DNA of 63,866 nucleotides, the filler included, from Licmophora abbreviata (lineage: Eukaryota), in assembly GCA_900291995.1 (NCBI GenBank). It is 12 parts of 12 records of this genome, joined end to end, with 100 filler letters (N's around TTAATTAATTAA, not from the genome) between each part and the next. Parts side by side here need not be neighbours in the genome. Positions count along the whole stretch, not along the records: positions 16,258 to 22,111 come from OLMU01000820.1; positions 22,212 to 24,133 come from OLMU01000821.1; 10 more parts are not named here. One strand, given 5' to 3'. Position numbers and translations under genes: made by a program. Below, piece after piece: positions 17,009-50,515 of this stretch. Positions within the stretch are counted from its first letter, which is position 1. Every line of letters begins with the position of its first letter. The notes beneath the pieces were generated by a model, which was not told the origin of the DNA, made no database searches, and saw nothing but the letters and a program-made list of their open reading frames with translations.

Positions 17009-18565
17009 TCATTCGTCGCTCTCATCAGCGTCTAGTTCTGGTCTCCATTCTGCAGGCATGCCATGAAATGCCATATTGTTGTACACATCTCGTAGGAACT
17101 TCTTCGAGTCTGTAAGCTCATCGCTTTCCAGGAGCTCCACCAGTCTCCAAGCTTGGACATTCAGTGGGATTTCTGGTTTCTCTCGTGCACCAACGCCTTC
17201 CTTCCACAATGACTCGACGACGCGGTGAATATAAGCTGTCGATCGACCGCCTACAAGCCAGCACCAACCATCGACGCTTTCCAGCTGTTCCAATCTGTAC
17301 GACCCGAAAGGCATGTCAGGATCGTCTTCCAACGCTTCGATTTCGCCCTCCAAGGGCAGAGGGAACTCGGTAGTAATGACAATTGTGCCAGGTTTGCATT
17401 GCCAGCCAATGGATTTACTTATAGCGGCCATCATGTCGCTTGACATGCAGCTCGAAAACACAAACACCAAGTCAGCATCGCCATAGTATGTGTACGGATC
17501 TTCAAACGAGCCACAGGTGAATTCGACGGGTGCCAGTCGAAGCTCCTCGTTCATGCCGTCGGTGCGGGGCAAAACGTATCCAACGTTTGCTTCTTCATCA
17601 TCCATTACTGCTTCTTCGTCGCTGAGAGCAATCGAATCCTCTACAGACTGTTCTTCAACACCGTCCTCGTCAGGGGCGTCGCACCCTGCCCATTCGTTCG
17701 GGTCCGAGGACTCGACGCTCTCGCCACCGAACTCCCCTCGAAGTTCATCTAGCCAGTCATGGTCCCGTACTTTCGCAGCTCCAAACGGCCTCCAAATTGT
17801 ATCTACGTCATCGCTTTCTTCCGCTTGTGAAGTATGGTCGCCGCATTCTTCGCTAGAAGCAGGCTGCGTTTCATCGTGTCGCCGAACACACTTGTCACGT
17901 ATCTCAACAGCTAGGTCATGGATCGAGGGAAGAACCTCCACGCCCCGGACAAGTTTCCACTGATGCAAAGCAGCTGCTGCCAAAACAAGTCTTCCCGTTC
18001 CTGATCCAATATCACAAAATACCTTATCCTTGTTCCAGTTCAATATCTTCTCTGTAACATCGCCGAACGAATTATAGTGTTCGACCGCACGGTCTAGCAA
18101 TGTCGCAAAGAAGTATAGATCAAACTCGCCGTAGGTAAAATGTTTAGGTGGATCCCGACCGCTGTTCACGTAGGGCCAGTATCCATCGGTTCGACTCGCC
18201 GCATTGCGTTTCTCCAAGTCTTCGGGAGGAAACAGTTTGTTCAAACCGTCAAGGACCGAGGCGTATCGAACGCCTGAGAGCGACTCTTGGTTGGGGTCCG
18301 CATTCGGGTCTTCTATCGGAATAGGATGACGTTCCTCGCTGAGTTTGTTCTCGTTAAGGGTGGATGTAAATGTGTGTCGACCTAAGGCTTTCCTTCCCCA
18401 TCCTGATGGCTGTCGCGTCTTCGCTGCCAGGTCTGGAGTTGCAACTGTGACGGTTCCTTGGCGCCAAAAGCGCGACGACGGAGCGACAAACGCATCGACA
18501 ACCCATTGTATCAGTAGATATAGGAGGATCAGAAGGTATGCCCGAGGGAGTGAGGCACGTGTCAT
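17009..18565 (-). CDS. SAM-dependent methyltransferase (DOT1-like fold), predicted plastid-targeted
   Basis: 'FTYGEF', 'FCDIGSGTGRLV', 'RGVEVL', 'ADLVFVFSSC'. Signal peptide ending 'VDA-FVAP' (ASAFAP-type). Confidence 0.7.
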   Translation of the reverse strand: MTRASLPRAYLLILLYLLIQWVVDAFVAPSSRFWRQGTVTVATPDLAAKTRQPSGWGRKALGRHTFTSTLNENKLSEERHPIPIEDPNADPNQESLSGVRYASVLDGLNKLFPPEDLEKRNAASRTDGYWPYVNSGRDPPKHFTYGEFDLYFFATLLDRAVEHYNSFGDVTEKILNWNKDKVFCDIGSGTGRLVLAAAALHQWKLVRGVEVLPSIHDLAVEIRDKCVRRHDETQPASSEECGDHTSQAEESDDVDTIWRPFGAAKVRDHDWLDELRGEFGGESVESSDPNEWAGCDAPDEDGVEEQSVEDSIALSDEEAVMDDEEANVGYVLPRTDGMNEELRLAPVEFTCGSFEDPYTYYGDADLVFVFSSCMSSDMMAAISKSIGWQCKPGTIVITTEFPLPLEGEIEALEDDPDMPFGSYRLEQLESVDGWCWLVGGRSTAYIHRVVESLWKEGVGAREKPEIPLNVQAWRLVELLESDELTDSKKFLRDVYNNMAFHGMPAEWRPELDADESDE

Positions 18566-19587: not shown

Positions 19588-22500
19588 ATGAAATTGCGAC
19601 TCTGCGGTGCCGTAATCTTGCTCTCCGCTACGAGCGGCGCGTCCTTTTCTTTCCAACAACAACTCCCACAAAGCTCTACAGCATCGCCAGCCCCATTAGC
19701 CACCAAATTCATATTTCCTGAAGATGTTCTGCCTCCTGATCGGGCTGAGAGTACTCTACTTATCGGAAAGAGGGAAGATTTGCAATTCTTCGACATTGAA
19801 AATGAACTTGAATTAGACGTTGGACGGGAGACGAGGGATGCGCTGCTGGACAGCATGGGACGCACCGGCACAGGATCGACATCGACCCTGGTAGGGGCTC
19901 ACAGTCTCATGATCTGCGCTGTGCCCGATGAAGTGTCTCGAAATAATCACCCTCTTTCGGTCCACTCAATCACGGAAGCGATCGCCAAATTACCCGAAGG
20001 ATCCTGCCGACTTGTCTTTTGCGGACGTGACATGGAAGAGCATTGTCGTTCTCTGACATCGGCTGCTGCCAAGGCATTTCCCGTTTACTCACAAAAAACC
20101 ACAAATGACGCGTTTAAGGAGCGCTACGTTCATGTCTCCTTCTTGAATGAAATGGGCAGGCCTGTTGAAGCCGACTTTGAGTACTTGCAGGCGGTCGTAG
20201 AAGGCGTGCAGCTCGCAACCCGACTCGTCGACATGCCATCTGAAGAGCTCACCACTACAGACTATGCCGAGGAATGTAAGAATATCGCCTCAGAGCTCGG
20301 TGTCCCTTATATGGAGATCGTAGGGGAAGACGTGAATGTTCAGGGCTATGGCGGACTGTATGGTGTGGGCAAAGGCGGCTTGAGCCCTCCGCGCCTCGTC
20401 GTTCTCGACTACACTCCGCAATCGGGAGTCTACAAAGAAAGCATTGCCTTGGTTGGAAACCGCATCGTCTACGACACGCCTGAGGCGGGTGATCAATTCA
20501 TGGATCGATCCAAAACTGGCGTACCAGTGATGAAACACGGCATGGGCGGGTCTGCCGATCTACTCATGGCCTTCTATAGTGCCGTCAGACTCGGTGCGAC
20601 CAAGAGGATCGTTCTAGTTCTTGGCCTGGCAGAAAATGCCGTTGTTGGACCTAACGCCCTAAAAAAGGACGACATTCTTAAGATGTATTCCGGAAAGAGC
20701 GTTGAGGTGAGCAATCTGGAAGCCGACGGAGGACTTGTCTTGGCAGACGCCGTTGCATATGCGACGAAACACATCGAAGGTCTCGATCTCGTCATCGACA
20801 TGGCTACGCTGACCGATTCTCAGCTCATGACAACTGGCAAAAAGCACGCGGGAATTCTTGCTAGCTCAAAACAAGTGGAAGTGAGAGCAACGGACGCAGG
20901 CATGCGCTCTGGGGACTTGGTCTTTCCCATGCTGTACGCACCGGAGATGCTCAAGAAAGAATTCGACAGCAGAGTTGCGGATATGAAGAATTCCCCGAGT
21001 GATCGGTACAACGCGCAGTGCTCCTGCGCAGGCCATTTTATTGAGTCTCATTTGGACGAGCGATACAGAGGAGAATGGCTTCATATTGATATGGCTGGGC
21101 CAGCTTGGAAAGAGGAGAGAGGGACTGGATTCGGCGTCAGCTTGATCCTCTCCTTGCTCGACGTGGAATCAAATAGGATCCCAGGAAATCTGCCAGCGCG
21201 CTCGGTACCAGGAGGATTCGGTGCACAGCCAATGCCAGGACCATTCGGGGCACCATCAGGTGCCAGAGACCGACCTCCCATCGCCGGCGATGTCTCTGCG
21301 CCGTTCTTCCGTCGCCCCTTGGGAAACGAGCCAATTCCTCCGCCGCCGGCATTCTTCGAACGCCCTGTGGGCAATGATCCCGGTCCACCGCCATTTTACG
21401 ACCGTCCCATTGACGTACCTTCCAAAGTAATTGAAGGTCAAGAGAGAGAATTCGCGCCGAGGCTTGCCGATACACTCGCGGAGGTTTTCATCCTTGTTGA
21501 CGACGGTGAGCCCCAATATACCGGAATGTCGGGCTCCGAATTTGATAGTAGGATGAATAAGTTTCGAGCGTTCGGTGGCCCTGGAGCGCCCGGAGGCAGA
21601 GACTTCCGATCCGGCATATCGCGTTCCGACTTCACTGATCGAGTGGCTAGGGAAGGCGCCCGATGGGGAGCGGACGACTACCGGTTCGGTGGTCCTCCTC
21701 CGCGCGATTTCGACAATCGTATGGGCAGAGATAATCGTATGGGTAGGGAAGGGGACAGGTTTGGGCCCGGCGACTTTCAGTTCGATAGCCCACCACGCAC
21801 CGACCTCGATGATCGCATGTCAAAGTTTCTAGGAAATCAAGCACGAAGGAACGCTGGCGAAATCACTGACACGGGAGGACTCAACGCGGGAGCAAGAGAA
21901 CGACCGCCTTCCCCCGACTTCAATGATCGCTCGGGTGATTGGGAAGGAAATATGGCTGGATTCGCGCGTGACAGGAGTGGCTTGGGTGGTTCTCGCGACG
22001 GTGATGGCATGGGCGAGGTTGGTCGCTCTCCGCTGAATGCTGATCTCATGGCTGGAGGCAATGCCGCTGATCGGCGTATGGGGGACCCTGGTGGCTCTCC
22101 ACCGAACGCTGNNNNNNNNNNNNNNNNNNNNNNNNNNNNNNNNNNNNNNNNNNNNTTAATTAATTAANNNNNNNNNNNNNNNNNNNNNNNNNNNNNNNNN
22201 NNNNNNNNNNNCGTGATGATCGGAGCATGAGAGACCCTGGTGGCTTTCCGCCGAACGATGGCCGTATGGGCGGGCCTCGTGACGATCGGGGCATGAGGGA
22301 TCCCGGTGGCCGTATGGGCGGGCCTCGTGACGATCGGGGCATGAGGGATCCCGGTGGCTTTCCGCCAAACGATGGCCGTATGGGTGGACCTCGTGACGAT
22401 CGGGGCATGAGGGACCCCGGGGGCTTTCCGCCAAACGGCGGCCGTATGGGTGGGCCTCGTGACGATCGGGGCATGAGGGATCCCGGGGGCTTTCCTCAGA

Positions 22501-22856
22501 ACGGTGGTCGCATGGGTGGGCCTCGCGACGATCGAGGCATGGGGAATCAGGGACCAAGGCTGAGAGACAATAGGTTCGAGCTTCCGCCGCCTGACTTTGA
22601 CGAGCGACCTCCTGTACTGCCGACTGTACAGGACACTAAAATTGTGGGGGTGTTCACAAGCTACGAAGCAGCCAAGCTGGGAGCAGAGGAGTATGTCTCC
22701 AATATGTTCCGAATGCGTGACATGAGAATGCTGGAGCGTGTCAACTGGTTCGGCGATGGTTGGTTCCATCAGGAGCCGGACCGCAGTCGCCCAAATCAGC
22801 GAGTGCGCATGAGGAAGATGGAGCTGGATCGGGTCAGCCTCGACGGGCGGTTGTGA
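19588..22856 (+). CDS. M17 leucyl-aminopeptidase (NPEPL1-like) pseudoenzyme with signal peptide and long repetitive low-complexity tail; spans the gap at 22112-22211
   Basis: NPEPL1-like motifs 'VSRNNHP', 'GYGGLYGVGK', 'LAENA', 'DMATLT', 'VADMKNS..DR.NAQCSCAG', 'WLHIDMA', 'GTGFGV'. Metal ligands are substituted. The same repeat type lies on both sides of the gap. Confidence 0.8.
22213..22541 (+). repeat. Coding tandem repeat, 66-bp unit (MRDPGGFPPNDGRMGGPRDDRG), about 5 copies with one truncated; more copies probably collapsed in the gap
   Basis: Visible directly in both DNA and translation. Confidence 0.9.
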
Positions 22857-34036: not shown

Positions 34037-36165
34037 CTAGGATGTAGCTACTTCCAACCACCCAAAAGAGGTTCTTTCGTCGTCGCCATCGTATATCACA
34101 TTGTCGAGCTGCAAGTCTTCGACGCGTCCAGGTGCAGAGCTGCTCTCTTTTCCGTCGCTGTTTGAGTTGCGTTTCTGGCGACGTCGCTTCGGTAGTTTCG
34201 TAATCAGACCTTCGTTAATTGCTTCCAGCACCGTGTTGCACTGAATCCAATCCATTCCGTTGGTCCGTCGAAAAGTTGTGCCCTGTTGCGAGTCCTTTCG
34301 ACCTCCCTTCGGTCGTGGAGTCACGACGCGAGAGAATCCCATGCGACTGGCTTCTTGAATTCGTTTCTCAATTGCCGGAACCGGTCGAAGCTCCCCGAGG
34401 AGTCCGACTTCCCCGACAAAGGCTGTGTCAGCACGGACAGGAATGCAGACAAAGCTGCTCACCAATGAAACAGCCACTGCCAGATCGGATGCGCCTCCCT
34501 CTTGCGCACCTTGGTCGAGACGCATATGCCCAACAACGTTGATGTACACATCCTGTTTGGAAAAGAACATGCCACAGCGCTTCTGCAACACTCCCAGTAG
34601 CAGTAACAGGCGCGAATACGAGATCCCATTGGCTATCCGACGACCGTAACCACTTCCGGCTGAGCTAGCAGGAGTCACGAGTGCTTGAACTTCTACCGTC
34701 ATCGCACGGAGTCCCTCCAGTACCAGTGCGATCGAACAGCCTTCCGAGTCCTCATATTCTATACGGTTCGACAGAAAGAGTGATGAAGGATCCGAAACAG
34801 GGCATAGACGCCCTGATGTCATTTCATAAACCCCAACTTCATCGGCAGACCCAAAACGATTCTTCGCAGCGCGCAGCATTCGTAGGTTGACGCCACCAAT
34901 CGTGCTCATGTCGCCACCTTCGAGGTAGAGGACGCAGTCAACCATGTGCTCCACAGTTCGAGGCCCAGCAACATCGCCGCTCTTGGTCACGTGGCCCACG
35001 AGAATATTGGGATTCCCGTAGACTTGGCGAGGCGCAAAAAGAGTGCAACGCATTCTCTCACTTGTGTAACCCCGCCGGCGGCTGAAGCTCCTCCCGCATC
35101 ACAAACCATCGTTTGAATCGAGTCAATGACAAGCAGCGCAGGCGGTTTGGCCTCTTGACCCGGAATCACCTCTGCCATCTTGAATGGCTGCTGAAACGAG
35201 TCGACAATTTGATCGGCTAACGTATCCACGTGCGTTTCGCTCAACAGCCACAGTTCGGACGCAGATATGCCCAGTCGCCCTGCTCTTGCTGCAATCTGGT
35301 CTGAGTTTTCCTCTCCCGACACGTACCAAACTTGTCCAAGGGATCGCGATGCGTCAGAAGTCTCCGCGAGTCCCATCCCGATGCCGCGGGTGGGTGCTGA
35401 TAACGATGCAAGGCTTCCTGCCGTCTGCAGCAGCAGTGTGCTCTTGCCGACGCCTGGATCGCCGCCCAACAGCGTGAGTGATCCTGCCATGATGCCTCCC
35501 CCCAGTACGGTATTGAGCTCATCGTCGTCTGGTACTCGTATTCGTTTTTCACACCGTATGCTATCGTAGGACGCATCGCCGTTGCTACCAGCGGGTTCAA
35601 TTGCCTTGTAGACGTCAGTGACACGAACCGGCCGGTTTCCATACGCGTCAAAGTCCAAGACTTCTCCGTTGATGGAAGGTGTCGCTCCATCTAACCACGA
35701 GCTAGCTTGACGTGACGCCGATCCAAAGGTAGGTCTCCCTGCGGTCTTTTGTTTCCCGGATGATTCCTCTCGACCGACTTGAAACTTTTGTAGCGTGTTC
35801 CATTCGCGACAGGTGGGACATCTCCCCATCCACTTGACAAATTCGCTTCCGCAATTCGTACAGACGTGAACACAGGTGGACCCTGTACCGGACGTACCCA
35901 TTGCCTTGCGTTGAGAGGGTGCTGAGCGGCCTCGATTCAGTCCGTACGACACGGATGTCTTGGGAGGGACGAAATTGGAGGTGTCCACCGAAGGAGGCTC
36001 GTCGTCGTCGTCGTCGAAATCGTCGTCCGCTTCGCCGTTGTCAAGCTCTGTCATGTAGCTTCGTCCAAGAATCCTCTTTTGATAATTTCTCGATCGTTTC
36101 AGCTGTCCATGAGCTGTGGACGAAAAAAGTTGAAGAGATCGATTTCGATCGAAACAAGGTCCCAA
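34037..36165 (-). CDS. radA: DNA repair protein RadA/Sms (organelle-type), apparent 1-nt frameshift at about 35002; start uncertain
   Basis: C4 zinc finger 'CTNCG..FVKWMGRCPTCREWNT', Walker A 'GDPGVGKSTLLLQ', 'YVSGEE', 'IDSIQT', 'KNRFG' and a Lon-like C-terminus 'GEVGLLGELR'. Confidence 0.93.
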
Positions 36166-48954: not shown

Positions 48955-50515
48955 ATGACAGAAACAAACAATCGACGACCGCCAATACCGCAGGCTACCA
49001 TGCCCAAACCATCGACCAGGAATGTTCAGAATATGCTAAACTTCATGTCGGATCCGAGCAGGAGTCCGACGGGAAGCGATGTGGCGACCATGGACGACGC
49101 CCAATTTAGTGCCTCTCTTGATGCCTTGCTGGAGACATGCGGCCGCAGTTCTCCTTCTGCCTTTGGGGGATCCGCGATTCAACCTGCCACAAAGACAGCC
49201 GAAGAGAAAGTGTCTTCAGTCTCTGCAACAGGATTCCCTTCCGGGTCAATAGCGCCCTCTCTTCCGGGACAAGCCGTGACGACGACCTCTCTATCCCGAA
49301 GTCACGCTCTACAGGCAGAGTCATCGTCTACCTCGTCTTCCTTTCCATGCCCCCAGACAGTCATGTTTCCGACCCAGAAATCCATGGTGGGAGCTCCACT
49401 AGGACCTTCTCCCCTGACGAAGAGACTTTCTTTCTCTTTTGACCCAACAAGCATGCCAGCTCGTCCCATGGTCGCTTCCAGTCCTGTCCCGTCCACTGTC
49501 AGTTCCATTACCACGGAAAGCCGGGGCCCGTTTACCTCTACTACTGGAAAGCGGATGCGTGTCGACTCTGCCATGGAAGTGTCGGAAAACGAGGGAGAAC
49601 GGAATCGACGACGCATTGATCGGAACGTGCGAGAGCAGCAGCGCTCTCATCGAATCTCCGAACAGGTTGCGTCCTTGCGTGAAGTCCTTGCTCAGTCAGA
49701 CGTGAAGTTCAAACCAGACAAGTATTCGACTTTAGTAAGTGCTGTCGCCTACATCAAACAGCTTCAAGATCGCTCTACAATGCTGGATGCAGAACACAAG
49801 CAGCTACTGACGACGATTGAAAAGACGAGCGAAATCACCAATAGTGCGTACTTCCAAGCTTCGACGACGAGCGGCACGTCTGCGACGCAGGTATCGTATG
49901 ACCTGATGAGTGACGAAGCCGCCAACACAGAAGACGACTTTGCTGTCTTTGTCAAGGGTCTGGATTACAAGAGTGTCTTTGAACAGAACTCCGTGGCCAT
50001 GGCGGTGGCTAGTATTGACGGACGCTTCCTCGACTGCAATGCTGAGTTCGAACAACTTGCTGGCTTGTCACGTGAGGAGCTACTACCCGGCGAGGCAACT
50101 GCCAAGACTCTAAGACCAGATGCTGCACCATCGCCGAGTGCTCCGGCGGTTCTGCCAACCAGAAACTTGTCTCTGTTCAATCTCTTGTCAAGGCAGGATA
50201 TGGAAGAAGTATTCTCAGCCATGAGTCAAATGATACAGAAGACAAACCGGCAAGGGGATGCTTTGCCGCAGGATGCGGACCAGCAAGAAGATTACTGGAC
50301 AGGGGTTGTGAAACAAGGGAGTGAAAATAATCAACAGCAGGTGCGTGATTGTATGGCCTTTCGAATGTTAGTTTATCTGTTCCGCACACGGAATTCCTAA
50401 ACTGACACTGCGCTATCTCGAACTCTTGTCACAGCTGACCATGATTGTAACGCTAGTTCGAAGCCCACGAGGTCGACCCAAGTTCTTCAACGTCGCCTTG
50501 ACGCCGCTAACATGA
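48955..50515 (+). CDS. bHLH-PAS transcription factor (diatom bHLH1 type); intron 50341-50434
   Basis: 'DRNVREQQRSHRISEQVASLREVL...FKPDKYSTL...YIKQLQ', PAS 'GLDYKSVF...SIDGRFLDCN', last exon 'PKFFNVALT'. Confidence 0.88.

Follow-up and report, generated by a model that had tools for sequence, protein, structure and literature searches.

What becomes of an aminopeptidase when its fold appears to be kept and the residues of its active site are replaced? This question is raised by a gene of Licmophora abbreviata (Eukaryota; assembly GCA_900291995.1), which lies in a stretch of 63,866 nt, here called the window, and codes for a homolog of the M17 leucine aminopeptidases. Its open reading frame (ORF) starts with an ATG at 19588, is open through 22111 and, after an artificial linker, resumes in frame at 22212 to end with a TGA at 22854–22856. 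The earlier note on this DNA, made from the sequence alone, had described an M17 paralog devoid of catalytic and metal ligands and had let it end at 21170. This end is wrong, as the frame stays open beyond it for more than 520 further residues. By homology and fold the protein belongs to M17, but it fails the active-site test of the enzyme. The best overall explanation, to which we give about an even chance, is a dead M17 offshoot that kept its fold, became fused to a tail and serves as a non-catalytic platform.

Family membership and fold

The profile of the M17 catalytic domain, PF00883, is matched by residues 209–520 with 239.5 bits, far above its gathering cut-off of 25, and over profile positions 2–309 of 310. 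The profile of the N-terminal domain, PF18295, stays below its cut-off (Table 1). The AlphaFold2 (AF2) model has a predicted local distance difference test score (pLDDT) of 83.8 and a predicted template modelling score (pTM) of 0.86; its low-confidence segments are the presequence (residues 1–31), the catalytic loop (297–315) and residues 463–472 and 505–507. The top match of this model in a Foldseek search is the leucine aminopeptidase (LAP) 5nsk of Trypanosoma brucei (E 2e-39, 524 columns), and the two-domain architecture can be superposed on solved M17 chains. Matches in the databases, in the PDB and by Foldseek place the protein among M17 homologs of the NPEPL1 / TriTryp acidic LAP / C. 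elegans LAP-1 type.

Loss of the active site

We scored seven residues, namely five metal ligands (K, D, D, D, E), the catalytic Lys and the Arg that holds the bicarbonate, which we take to be residues 250/255/273/332/334/262/336 in bovine numbering. An M17 active site of seven residues, with metal ligands, catalytic Lys and bicarbonate-holding Arg among them, is described in excerpts of PMC3078892. Six of the seven are replaced in the window protein (K to N, K to R, D to G, D to E, E to D and R to G, giving N291, R307, G318, E378, D380 and G382, respectively); the first Asp, D296, alone is unchanged. Directly after this retained D296, the catalytic loop carries an insert of four residues (298–301), and nearby GG has become DQ. 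The translation gives VGNR with AAC at 20458–20460, MKHGMGG with GGC at 20539–20541 and NLEADGGL from 20713–20736. These are the changes listed in the earlier note and they are real; overlooked there were the loop insert, the replacement of the second Lys by Arg and the fact that E378 and D380 are carboxylate swaps (D to E, E to D), by which a carboxylate is kept at both sites.

These positions were compared with the 120 best database homologs (41–57% identical, about 90% of the M17 part covered), which came from a full-length search among proteins of 462–1472 residues. In the MAFFT alignment VGK, YDTGGL..K, MK.D and N.DAEGR are kept in all 120, and the view that active-site motifs are altered amid intact fold motifs is thereby borne out. 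Of 92 columns in which the homologs agree to 98% or more, 18 are broken in the window protein, compared with at most 4 (median 0) in each homolog. Most of the broken columns belong to the active-site motifs or adjoin them (residues 291–318, 375–382 and 410–411). G410D/A411S in the TLTGA motif, together with the change of GG to DQ, alter the substrate pocket.

Judged by the seven residues, the window protein does not qualify as an M17 leucyl aminopeptidase. Because two ligands of the tight metal site and the bicarbonate-holding Arg are gone and the loop of the catalytic Lys is altered, the canonical aminopeptidase chemistry is very likely lost, and we are confident that a protein with this sequence would not cleave peptides by the M17 mechanism.

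One may think of a remodelled enzyme instead, in which E378, D380, D296 and N291 together with the loop acids E299, D302 and D306 form another metal site or support another chemistry. Three carboxylate positions do survive (D296, E378, D380), the insert and its neighbours bring E and D beside the lost ligands, the second Lys has become Arg and not a neutral residue, and the pocket motifs MATLT and NAQ.SCAG are partly kept. However, the Lys that became Asn and the Asp that became Gly, a residue devoid of a side chain, are, by the roles given in excerpts of PMC3078892, both ligands of the tight metal site, and the Arg that is now Gly is the one holding the bicarbonate. Furthermore, the catalytic loop 297–315 is modelled at a pLDDT below 50, GG to DQ and G410D/A411S also change the substrate pocket, and, as the arrangement occurs in no relative, nothing indicates that a new site has been selected. 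We regard a remodelled enzyme as rather improbable.

Support by independent contigs

Mis-assembly or chimeric contigs, in an assembly that is fragmented, could also account for the unusual residues or for the link between M17 part and tail. The window gives some reason for this suspicion, as it consists of 12 short contigs of about 1.3–8.7 kb, joined by 11 identical artificial linkers of 100 nt between 4960 and 62737, one of which lies inside the tail. The centre of each linker is a 12-nt sequence with stops in all frames, flanked by 44 N per side. Because the window is such a chain of joined contigs, gene models that span a linker, that of the M17-tail gene among them, are provisional.

The motif changes themselves are found again elsewhere. 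Small contigs at least 99% identical to the window were obtained from four public runs belonging to three studies, and they have the same letters in the motifs; no public run shares half of the window's sequence words. A contig of run X1 spans 20362–20516, including N291 and the insert, with 0 differences, and a contig of run X4 spans 20538–20861, including G318 and NLEADGG, with three differences, none of which is listed at the motif codons. Since independent contigs carry the same letters, the motif changes are not assembly errors, and the read check suggested in the earlier note has turned out in favour of the substitutions. The independent contigs leave out 19676–19769, 20259–20361 and 21180–22100, the junction of M17 part and tail as well as the tail being included in these gaps. 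Within the window, the M17 body and the first 314 residues of the tail share one contig and one frame, and on both sides of the linker the repeats are of the same type, frame and orientation. We consider an artefact very improbable.

The same contigs offer a view of polymorphism. Two variants are listed, the non-synonymous K360N (G to T at 20667, in one X4 contig), where N is the usual residue in nearly all active homologs, and a synonymous change at T407. Altogether, 3 differences in 1209 nt of M17 coding sequence stand against 5 in 225 nt upstream (Fisher p 0.003); in run X3 alone there are 0 in 302 nt of coding and 5 in 152 nt of upstream sequence (p 0.004). The lower variation in the coding part is a weak hint of constraint, the contigs being of low depth.

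Presequence

The N-terminus reads M-K-L-R, followed by a hydrophobic core, G-A-S and then F-S-F. According to the ASAFAP rule as given in excerpts of PMC4329603, F, W, Y or L is found at +1 after the cleavage site. If cleavage is assumed between G-A-S and F (written G-A-S/F), the aromatic residue at +1 after small residues conforms to this rule. To this extent the resemblance to a bipartite plastid-targeting sequence, which the earlier note had pointed out, is upheld, but it is weakened by a transit-like stretch in which basic residues are lacking before K40. For this latter reason import into the stroma is uncertain, and entry into the route through the endoplasmic reticulum (ER) would be the safer statement.

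The earlier note had also stated that the signal peptide was gained. This cannot be maintained, because by a crude rule 37 of the 115 active homologs that begin with M already have a hydrophobic core and an A-x-A/F-type site; many of the homolog presequences read ASAF, ATAF or SSAF. Since active homologs show the same build, the presequence appears to be inherited. By a likewise crude screen, a Met is located near the mature start in 18 of 45 sequences with hydrophobic presequence (the window's own is one of the 45), and the window protein has no second Met at this place.

A side observation concerns the active enzymes. P0003, P0007, P0031/P0026, P0030, P0036 and others combine a plastid-type presequence with a second Met at the start of the mature domain, and some database entries of diatom NPEPL1-like proteins begin at the second Met. 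This second Met hints that alternative initiation may send the active diatom NPEPL1-like enzyme to two destinations (dual targeting).

The tail and its end domain

In 120 of 120 homologs the sequence continues by not more than 16 residues beyond the domain, usually ending in ..APGF. At this very point the window has V-P-G-G-F and the frame then continues, with G, P, R, D and F abundant among the next 314 residues. The tail frame has 0 stops in 313 codons compared with 23 and 4 in the other forward frames, and none out of 20000 shuffles was free of stops. For the repeats behind the linker, Tandem Repeats Finder (TRF) gives a period of 66, 3.7 copies and 89% matches. A hand count over the four full units found 15 variable nucleotide columns, of which 12 are third positions, all synonymous, and 3 change the residue (binomial p 2.9e-4 for the third-position excess). 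With 12 of 15 variable columns at third positions and all of these synonymous, the repeats are read and selected in this frame.

Over the repeat array, two long ORFs (104 and 201 residues) are also found on the opposite strand (22160–22769, minus strand). In all likelihood these are not genes and arise as a by-product of the low complexity of the repeats.

When the last 109 residues were searched with phmmer against 1.84 billion representatives, ten small proteins of 77–285 residues (P0128–P0137) were retrieved with E 1e-8 to 1e-3. In reverse, tblastn with P0128 finds the end domain of the window at 1.5e-12. A hidden Markov model (HMM) of these ten relatives matches the last 81 residues of the window protein at HMM positions 66–160 and, weakly, residues 631–647 at the preceding positions 46–62 (Table 1). 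The kinship of the end domain with P0128–P0137 is clear from these alignments. DUF7336 (PF24024) is touched by 7 of 11 scanned sequences, including that of the window, with a best E of 4.8e-5; the window itself, at 13.6 bits and E 0.059, stays below the gathering cut-off of 25, and the domain is here called DUF7336-like.

The motif [DE][FL]xxR is located in the first loop of this family; in the window it occurs five times between the two pieces of the domain and once just before the second strand. We infer a DUF7336-like domain in which internal duplication has enlarged the first loop beyond 400 residues, rich in R, G, D, P and M. In the ten relatives the domain is free-standing and the first loop short, whereas in the window the domain ends an M17 protein and its first loop apparently exceeds 400 residues. 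Among proteins of 500–2000 residues, a search with the end-domain alignment (E <=0.01) found no fused M17–DUF7336 form, which is weak evidence.

The AF2 model of P0128 has a pLDDT of 77.9, and Foldseek found no PDB match to it better than E 1.1. A wide VIA-align comparison reached at best Z 4.5, with 0 chains at Z >=5. No fold could be assigned to the domain, and a comparison with the protein atlas gave at best 0.82, to eukaryotic clusters without names and below the meaningful level. A literature search found no paper naming DUF7336. The N-terminus of one relative, P0136, closely resembles the N-terminal tail of histone H3, and this, together with the K/R-rich N-termini of several others, which resemble nuclear-localisation signals, gives hints of a nuclear role for the free-standing DUF7336-like family.

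Constraint or decay

None of the replacements is common to any of the 120 full-length homologs, nor do they occur in four aligned short fragments (six had been found, of which the two weakest, with 34–36% identity, were left out). Metagenome contigs were scanned with six peptide patterns; the 79 matches included one relative, 57% identical and without any of the replacements. In this relative (locus L001, 50–2106, plus strand) the gene is active and ends in ..APGF, and an unrelated gene on the opposite strand comes next. Introns have presumably split its active copy, which appears as four or more ORF pieces. Unlike this intron-broken nearest metagenome relative, the M17 part of the window is a single uninterrupted frame; a retrocopy origin of this part is conceivable. 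When an active homolog served as tblastn query against the window, no second M17 copy emerged and the sole match was the gene itself.

The earlier note had seen here a conserved pseudoenzyme and had suggested to look in diatoms for orthologs with the same substitutions. Such an ortholog was not present among the relatives examined, that is, the 120 homologs, the four fragments and the one metagenome locus, and the word conserved has to be dropped. A quick maximum-likelihood tree with 121 rows places the window protein inside a well-supported diatom clade of 16 rows, on an end branch of 0.82 compared with a median of 0.15, which is among the four longest of all rows. By its sequence the window protein appears as a fast-evolving, lineage-specific offshoot; it is probably a non-enzymatic offshoot of one lineage and not a widely conserved pseudoenzyme.

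A young pseudogene must be weighed at this point, that is, an M17 part that recently lost its function and is drifting, its frame being open still for want of time, with the tail or a downstream gene perhaps translated from an internal Met at about residue 547. It would agree with the restriction of the replacements to one lineage, with the long end branch, with the 18 broken columns among 92 nearly invariant ones, with the one non-synonymous change among two listed polymorphisms and with the in-frame Met just past the M17 body. The distribution of the mismatches speaks against it. In the top conservation class (>=98%) the window mismatches at 18 of 99 columns and the three longest-branched active homologs at 0–4 of 100, whereas in the other classes its rates of 0.23, 0.52 and 0.70 match those of the same three homologs (0.23–0.29, 0.51–0.59 and 0.76–0.81). 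The mismatch rate of the window thus still climbs steeply with column variability, from 0.18 to 0.70. Long neutral decay is disfavoured, because drift would flatten this rise.

Other signs go in the same direction. All three lineage-specific indels are in frame, and their number is within the range of six active homologs. There are 0 stops in the 527 M17 codons, whereas a rough hand model of neutral change expects about 3 at 0.05 changes per nucleotide and about 17 at 0.27, hence more than 3 beyond a neutral divergence of 0.05. E378 and D380 retain the charge of the residues they replace, the coding pieces are less variable than the 225 nt upstream, and M17 body, linker and end domain lie in one stop-free frame. 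Since the excess of mismatches is restricted to the top class, the indels are in frame, no stop occurs and the model is confident, the data point to a fold that was kept and an active site that was selectively abandoned, unlike long neutral decay. A young pseudogene is unlikely in our judgement.

Possible oligomerisation and proposed role

A complex prediction with three copies of residues 196–527 scored 0.62, compared with 0.01 for the best control; between runs at least 59% of the contacts agree, and the partner pLDDT is at least 82. Of 30 proteins whose solved structure is a pair of one chain, 21 reach the mark used here; of 23 with a single chain in the solved structure, none does.

Under the preferred reading of a dead M17 offshoot, a nuclear gene of a diatom-type alga would descend from a diatom M17 aminopeptidase of the NPEPL1-like, plastid-targeted kind. 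The two-metal active site would have been given up in this lineage and the M17 fold kept. The product would be one polypeptide of more than 1050 residues. It would begin with a signal peptide and its ASAF-type site, continue with the dead M17 body and a linker rich in Pro, and close with the DUF7336-like domain and its expanded first loop. This protein may enter the ER and the plastid route, and the M17 body could form a self-associating, non-catalytic platform presenting several disordered tails and end domains. Its role would then be that of a scaffold or binding protein, of the kind proposed for the sperm leucyl aminopeptidases (S-LAPs) of Drosophila.

A more far-reaching picture, which we hold to be quite improbable, makes the dead M17 body a hub in the plastid or periplastidial route. 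Up to six sticker-rich tails, with repeated [D/E]-F-x-x-R and R-D-D-R-G-M-R-D-P-G-G motifs and a small folded end domain, would be part of the same improbable picture, and the hub would be driver or client of a condensate or of a structural matrix. If true, it would be the protist counterpart of the sperm S-LAP paracrystal, made by fusion of an enzyme with a disordered region.

Several points weigh against the proposed platform. The two halves of the tail sit on different contigs joined by an artificial linker, and residues 631–647 match the first strand of the end domain weakly (E 0.021). Basic N-termini resembling nuclear-localisation signals are present in several relatives of this domain, a poor fit to a plastid or secretory protein. 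Excerpts of PMC4329603 name a net positive charge as a requirement of plastid import, and the transit-like stretch of the window contains no basic residue before K40. The searches for full-length proteins, short fragments and metagenome loci yielded no ortholog with these changes. Of the two polymorphisms listed, K360N is non-synonymous and leads towards the usual residue of the family. An inactivation as recent as up to about 0.05 changes per nucleotide is possibly compatible with the data. The complex prediction differed from its calibration in having three copies, and it made no use of the alignment; because M17 hexamers are solved, its good score may reflect memory of these structures. Finally, according to excerpts of PMC7948507, metal-ligand mutations impaired hexamer formation in Plasmodium M17. 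The hexamer, which the earlier note had treated as typical of M17, is less safe than stated there, given such poorly assembling mutants. The weight of the case is moderate, since it is one gene in one fragmentary assembly, for which the above searches found no ortholog.

Features and neighbouring genes in the window

The coordinates of the M17-tail gene are collected in Table 1.

Table 1. Features of the M17-tail gene and of the contig junction, positions counted along the window
Feature	Coordinates	Strand	Evidence and remarks
Signal-peptide-like N-terminus, residues 1–19	19588..19644	+	Basic start, hydrophobic core, small G-A-S end; Kyte-Doolittle 9-residue maximum 2.58
Transit-peptide-like stretch, residues 20–39, first residue F	19645..19704	+	6/20 S/T, 0 acidic, 0 basic before K40; read by eye
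M17 N-terminal domain, about residues 40–195	19705..20172	+	PF18295 19.5 bits (cut-off 27); AF2 confident; Foldseek full-length to 5nsk, template modelling (TM) score 0.78
M17 catalytic-domain homolog with degenerate active site, about residues 196–527	20173..21168	+	PF00883 E 7e-71; PDB 5ntf E 2.7e-74
Active-site segment	20458..20733	+	N291 (20458), insert 298–301 (20479–20490), R307 (20506), G318 (20539), E378 (20719), D380 (20725), G382 (20731); AF2 pLDDT <50 at 297–315
Pro/Gly-rich linker, residues 528–630	21169..21477	+	Three F-F/Y-x-R-P-type motifs; homologs end ..APGF near here
First strand and E-P-Q..G motif, match to DUF7336-like family, residues 631–647	21478..21528	+	HMM positions 46–62, E 0.021, 1.8 bits, weak
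Low-complexity R/G/D/P/F-rich stretch up to contig end	21529..22111	+	Five [DE][FL]xxR motifs
Artificial 100-nt linker between two contigs	22112..22211		44 N, TTAATTAATTAA, 44 N
Tandem 66-nt (22-residue) repeats, frame unchanged	22212..22545	+	Four full units, one 16-residue unit, one degenerate unit
Remaining DUF7336-like domain (strand, helix, W..G.W motif, last strand) and TGA stop	22605..22856	+	HMM positions 66–160, E 1.5e-22

Other ORFs of the window code for proteins with eukaryotic domains of the Ist1, bHLH-PAS, Mei2-type RRM, HisF/HisH and RadA-like types. The divergent neighbour of the M17-tail gene (17009–18565, minus strand) codes for 518 residues with a weak match to DOT1-type methyltransferases (E 8.7e-7) and an acidic middle part. 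The N-terminus of this DOT1-like protein has a hydrophobic signal and V-D-A followed by F-V-A-P, a textbook ASAFAP-type site, and both genes have an upstream region of 1 kb in common. A RadA/Sms-like gene (34040–36054, minus strand) with zinc ribbon, AAA_25 and Lon_C/ChlI appears as two overlapping ORFs (34990–36054 and 34040–35053), which suggests an intron or a frameshift near 35000. At 48955–50397 (plus strand) a bHLH-PAS protein is encoded (HLH E 6e-9, PAS_8 E 2e-6).

Comparison with known systems

The closest relatives are the NPEPL1-like M17 aminopeptidases of diatoms, many of them annotated by the Joint Genome Institute (JGI) as 'probable aminopeptidase NPEPL1', with the same two-domain fold and 41–57% identity. 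All homologs with a named source are from diatoms, for instance Seminavis, Amphora, Pseudo-nitzschia, Cylindrotheca, Thalassiosira and Skeletonema. They keep the seven active-site residues and end in ..APGF, whereas in the window protein six of these are changed, the loop has an insert and a tail of more than 520 residues follows. In the literature, a search found nothing pairing NPEPL1 with diatoms, and among the matches listed for diatom leucine aminopeptidase, plastid and M17 no diatom M17 was recognizable by title or abstract. The best solved relatives are the acidic M17 LAPs of Trypanosoma and Leishmania (5ntf, 5nth, 5nsk, 4efd) and LAP-1 of C. elegans (2hb6), with sequence E 2.7e-74 to 3.7e-69 and fold TM 0.77–0.79. 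These are active, metal-binding enzymes, with K, D, D, E and R opposite N291, G318, E378, D380 and G382 of the window.

New structural or regulatory proteins are known to arise from catalytically inactive members of enzyme families, and for M17 the precedent is given by the S-LAPs of insect sperm. This precedent, to which the earlier note had referred, is in print: in excerpts of PMC3078892 and PMC6388916, cation ligands and catalytic residues of the Drosophila S-LAPs (cluster I) are described as replaced, and a non-enzymatic, structural role is proposed. Excerpts of PMC3078892 state that the active-site residues were lost under purifying selection. As far as these excerpts go, the S-LAPs form a testis-specific, multi-copy animal family, conserved across species and seen in proteomes. 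In contrast, the window case is a single gene of one lineage, known from its sequence and with no ortholog found. Furthermore, the S-LAPs belong to another M17 subfamily, said to be more than 40% similar to bovine lens LAP, and the excerpts of PMC3078892 describe no repeat tail for them.

By analogy, the window protein would work, if at all, more like the S-LAPs. If this is true, it would be a second, independent M17 case, in a photosynthetic protist, with the twist that a hexamer-type body is combined with a repeat tail and a small domain. Should the protein be expressed and assembled, it would offer a simple system for the re-use of an oligomeric enzyme as a multivalent scaffold.

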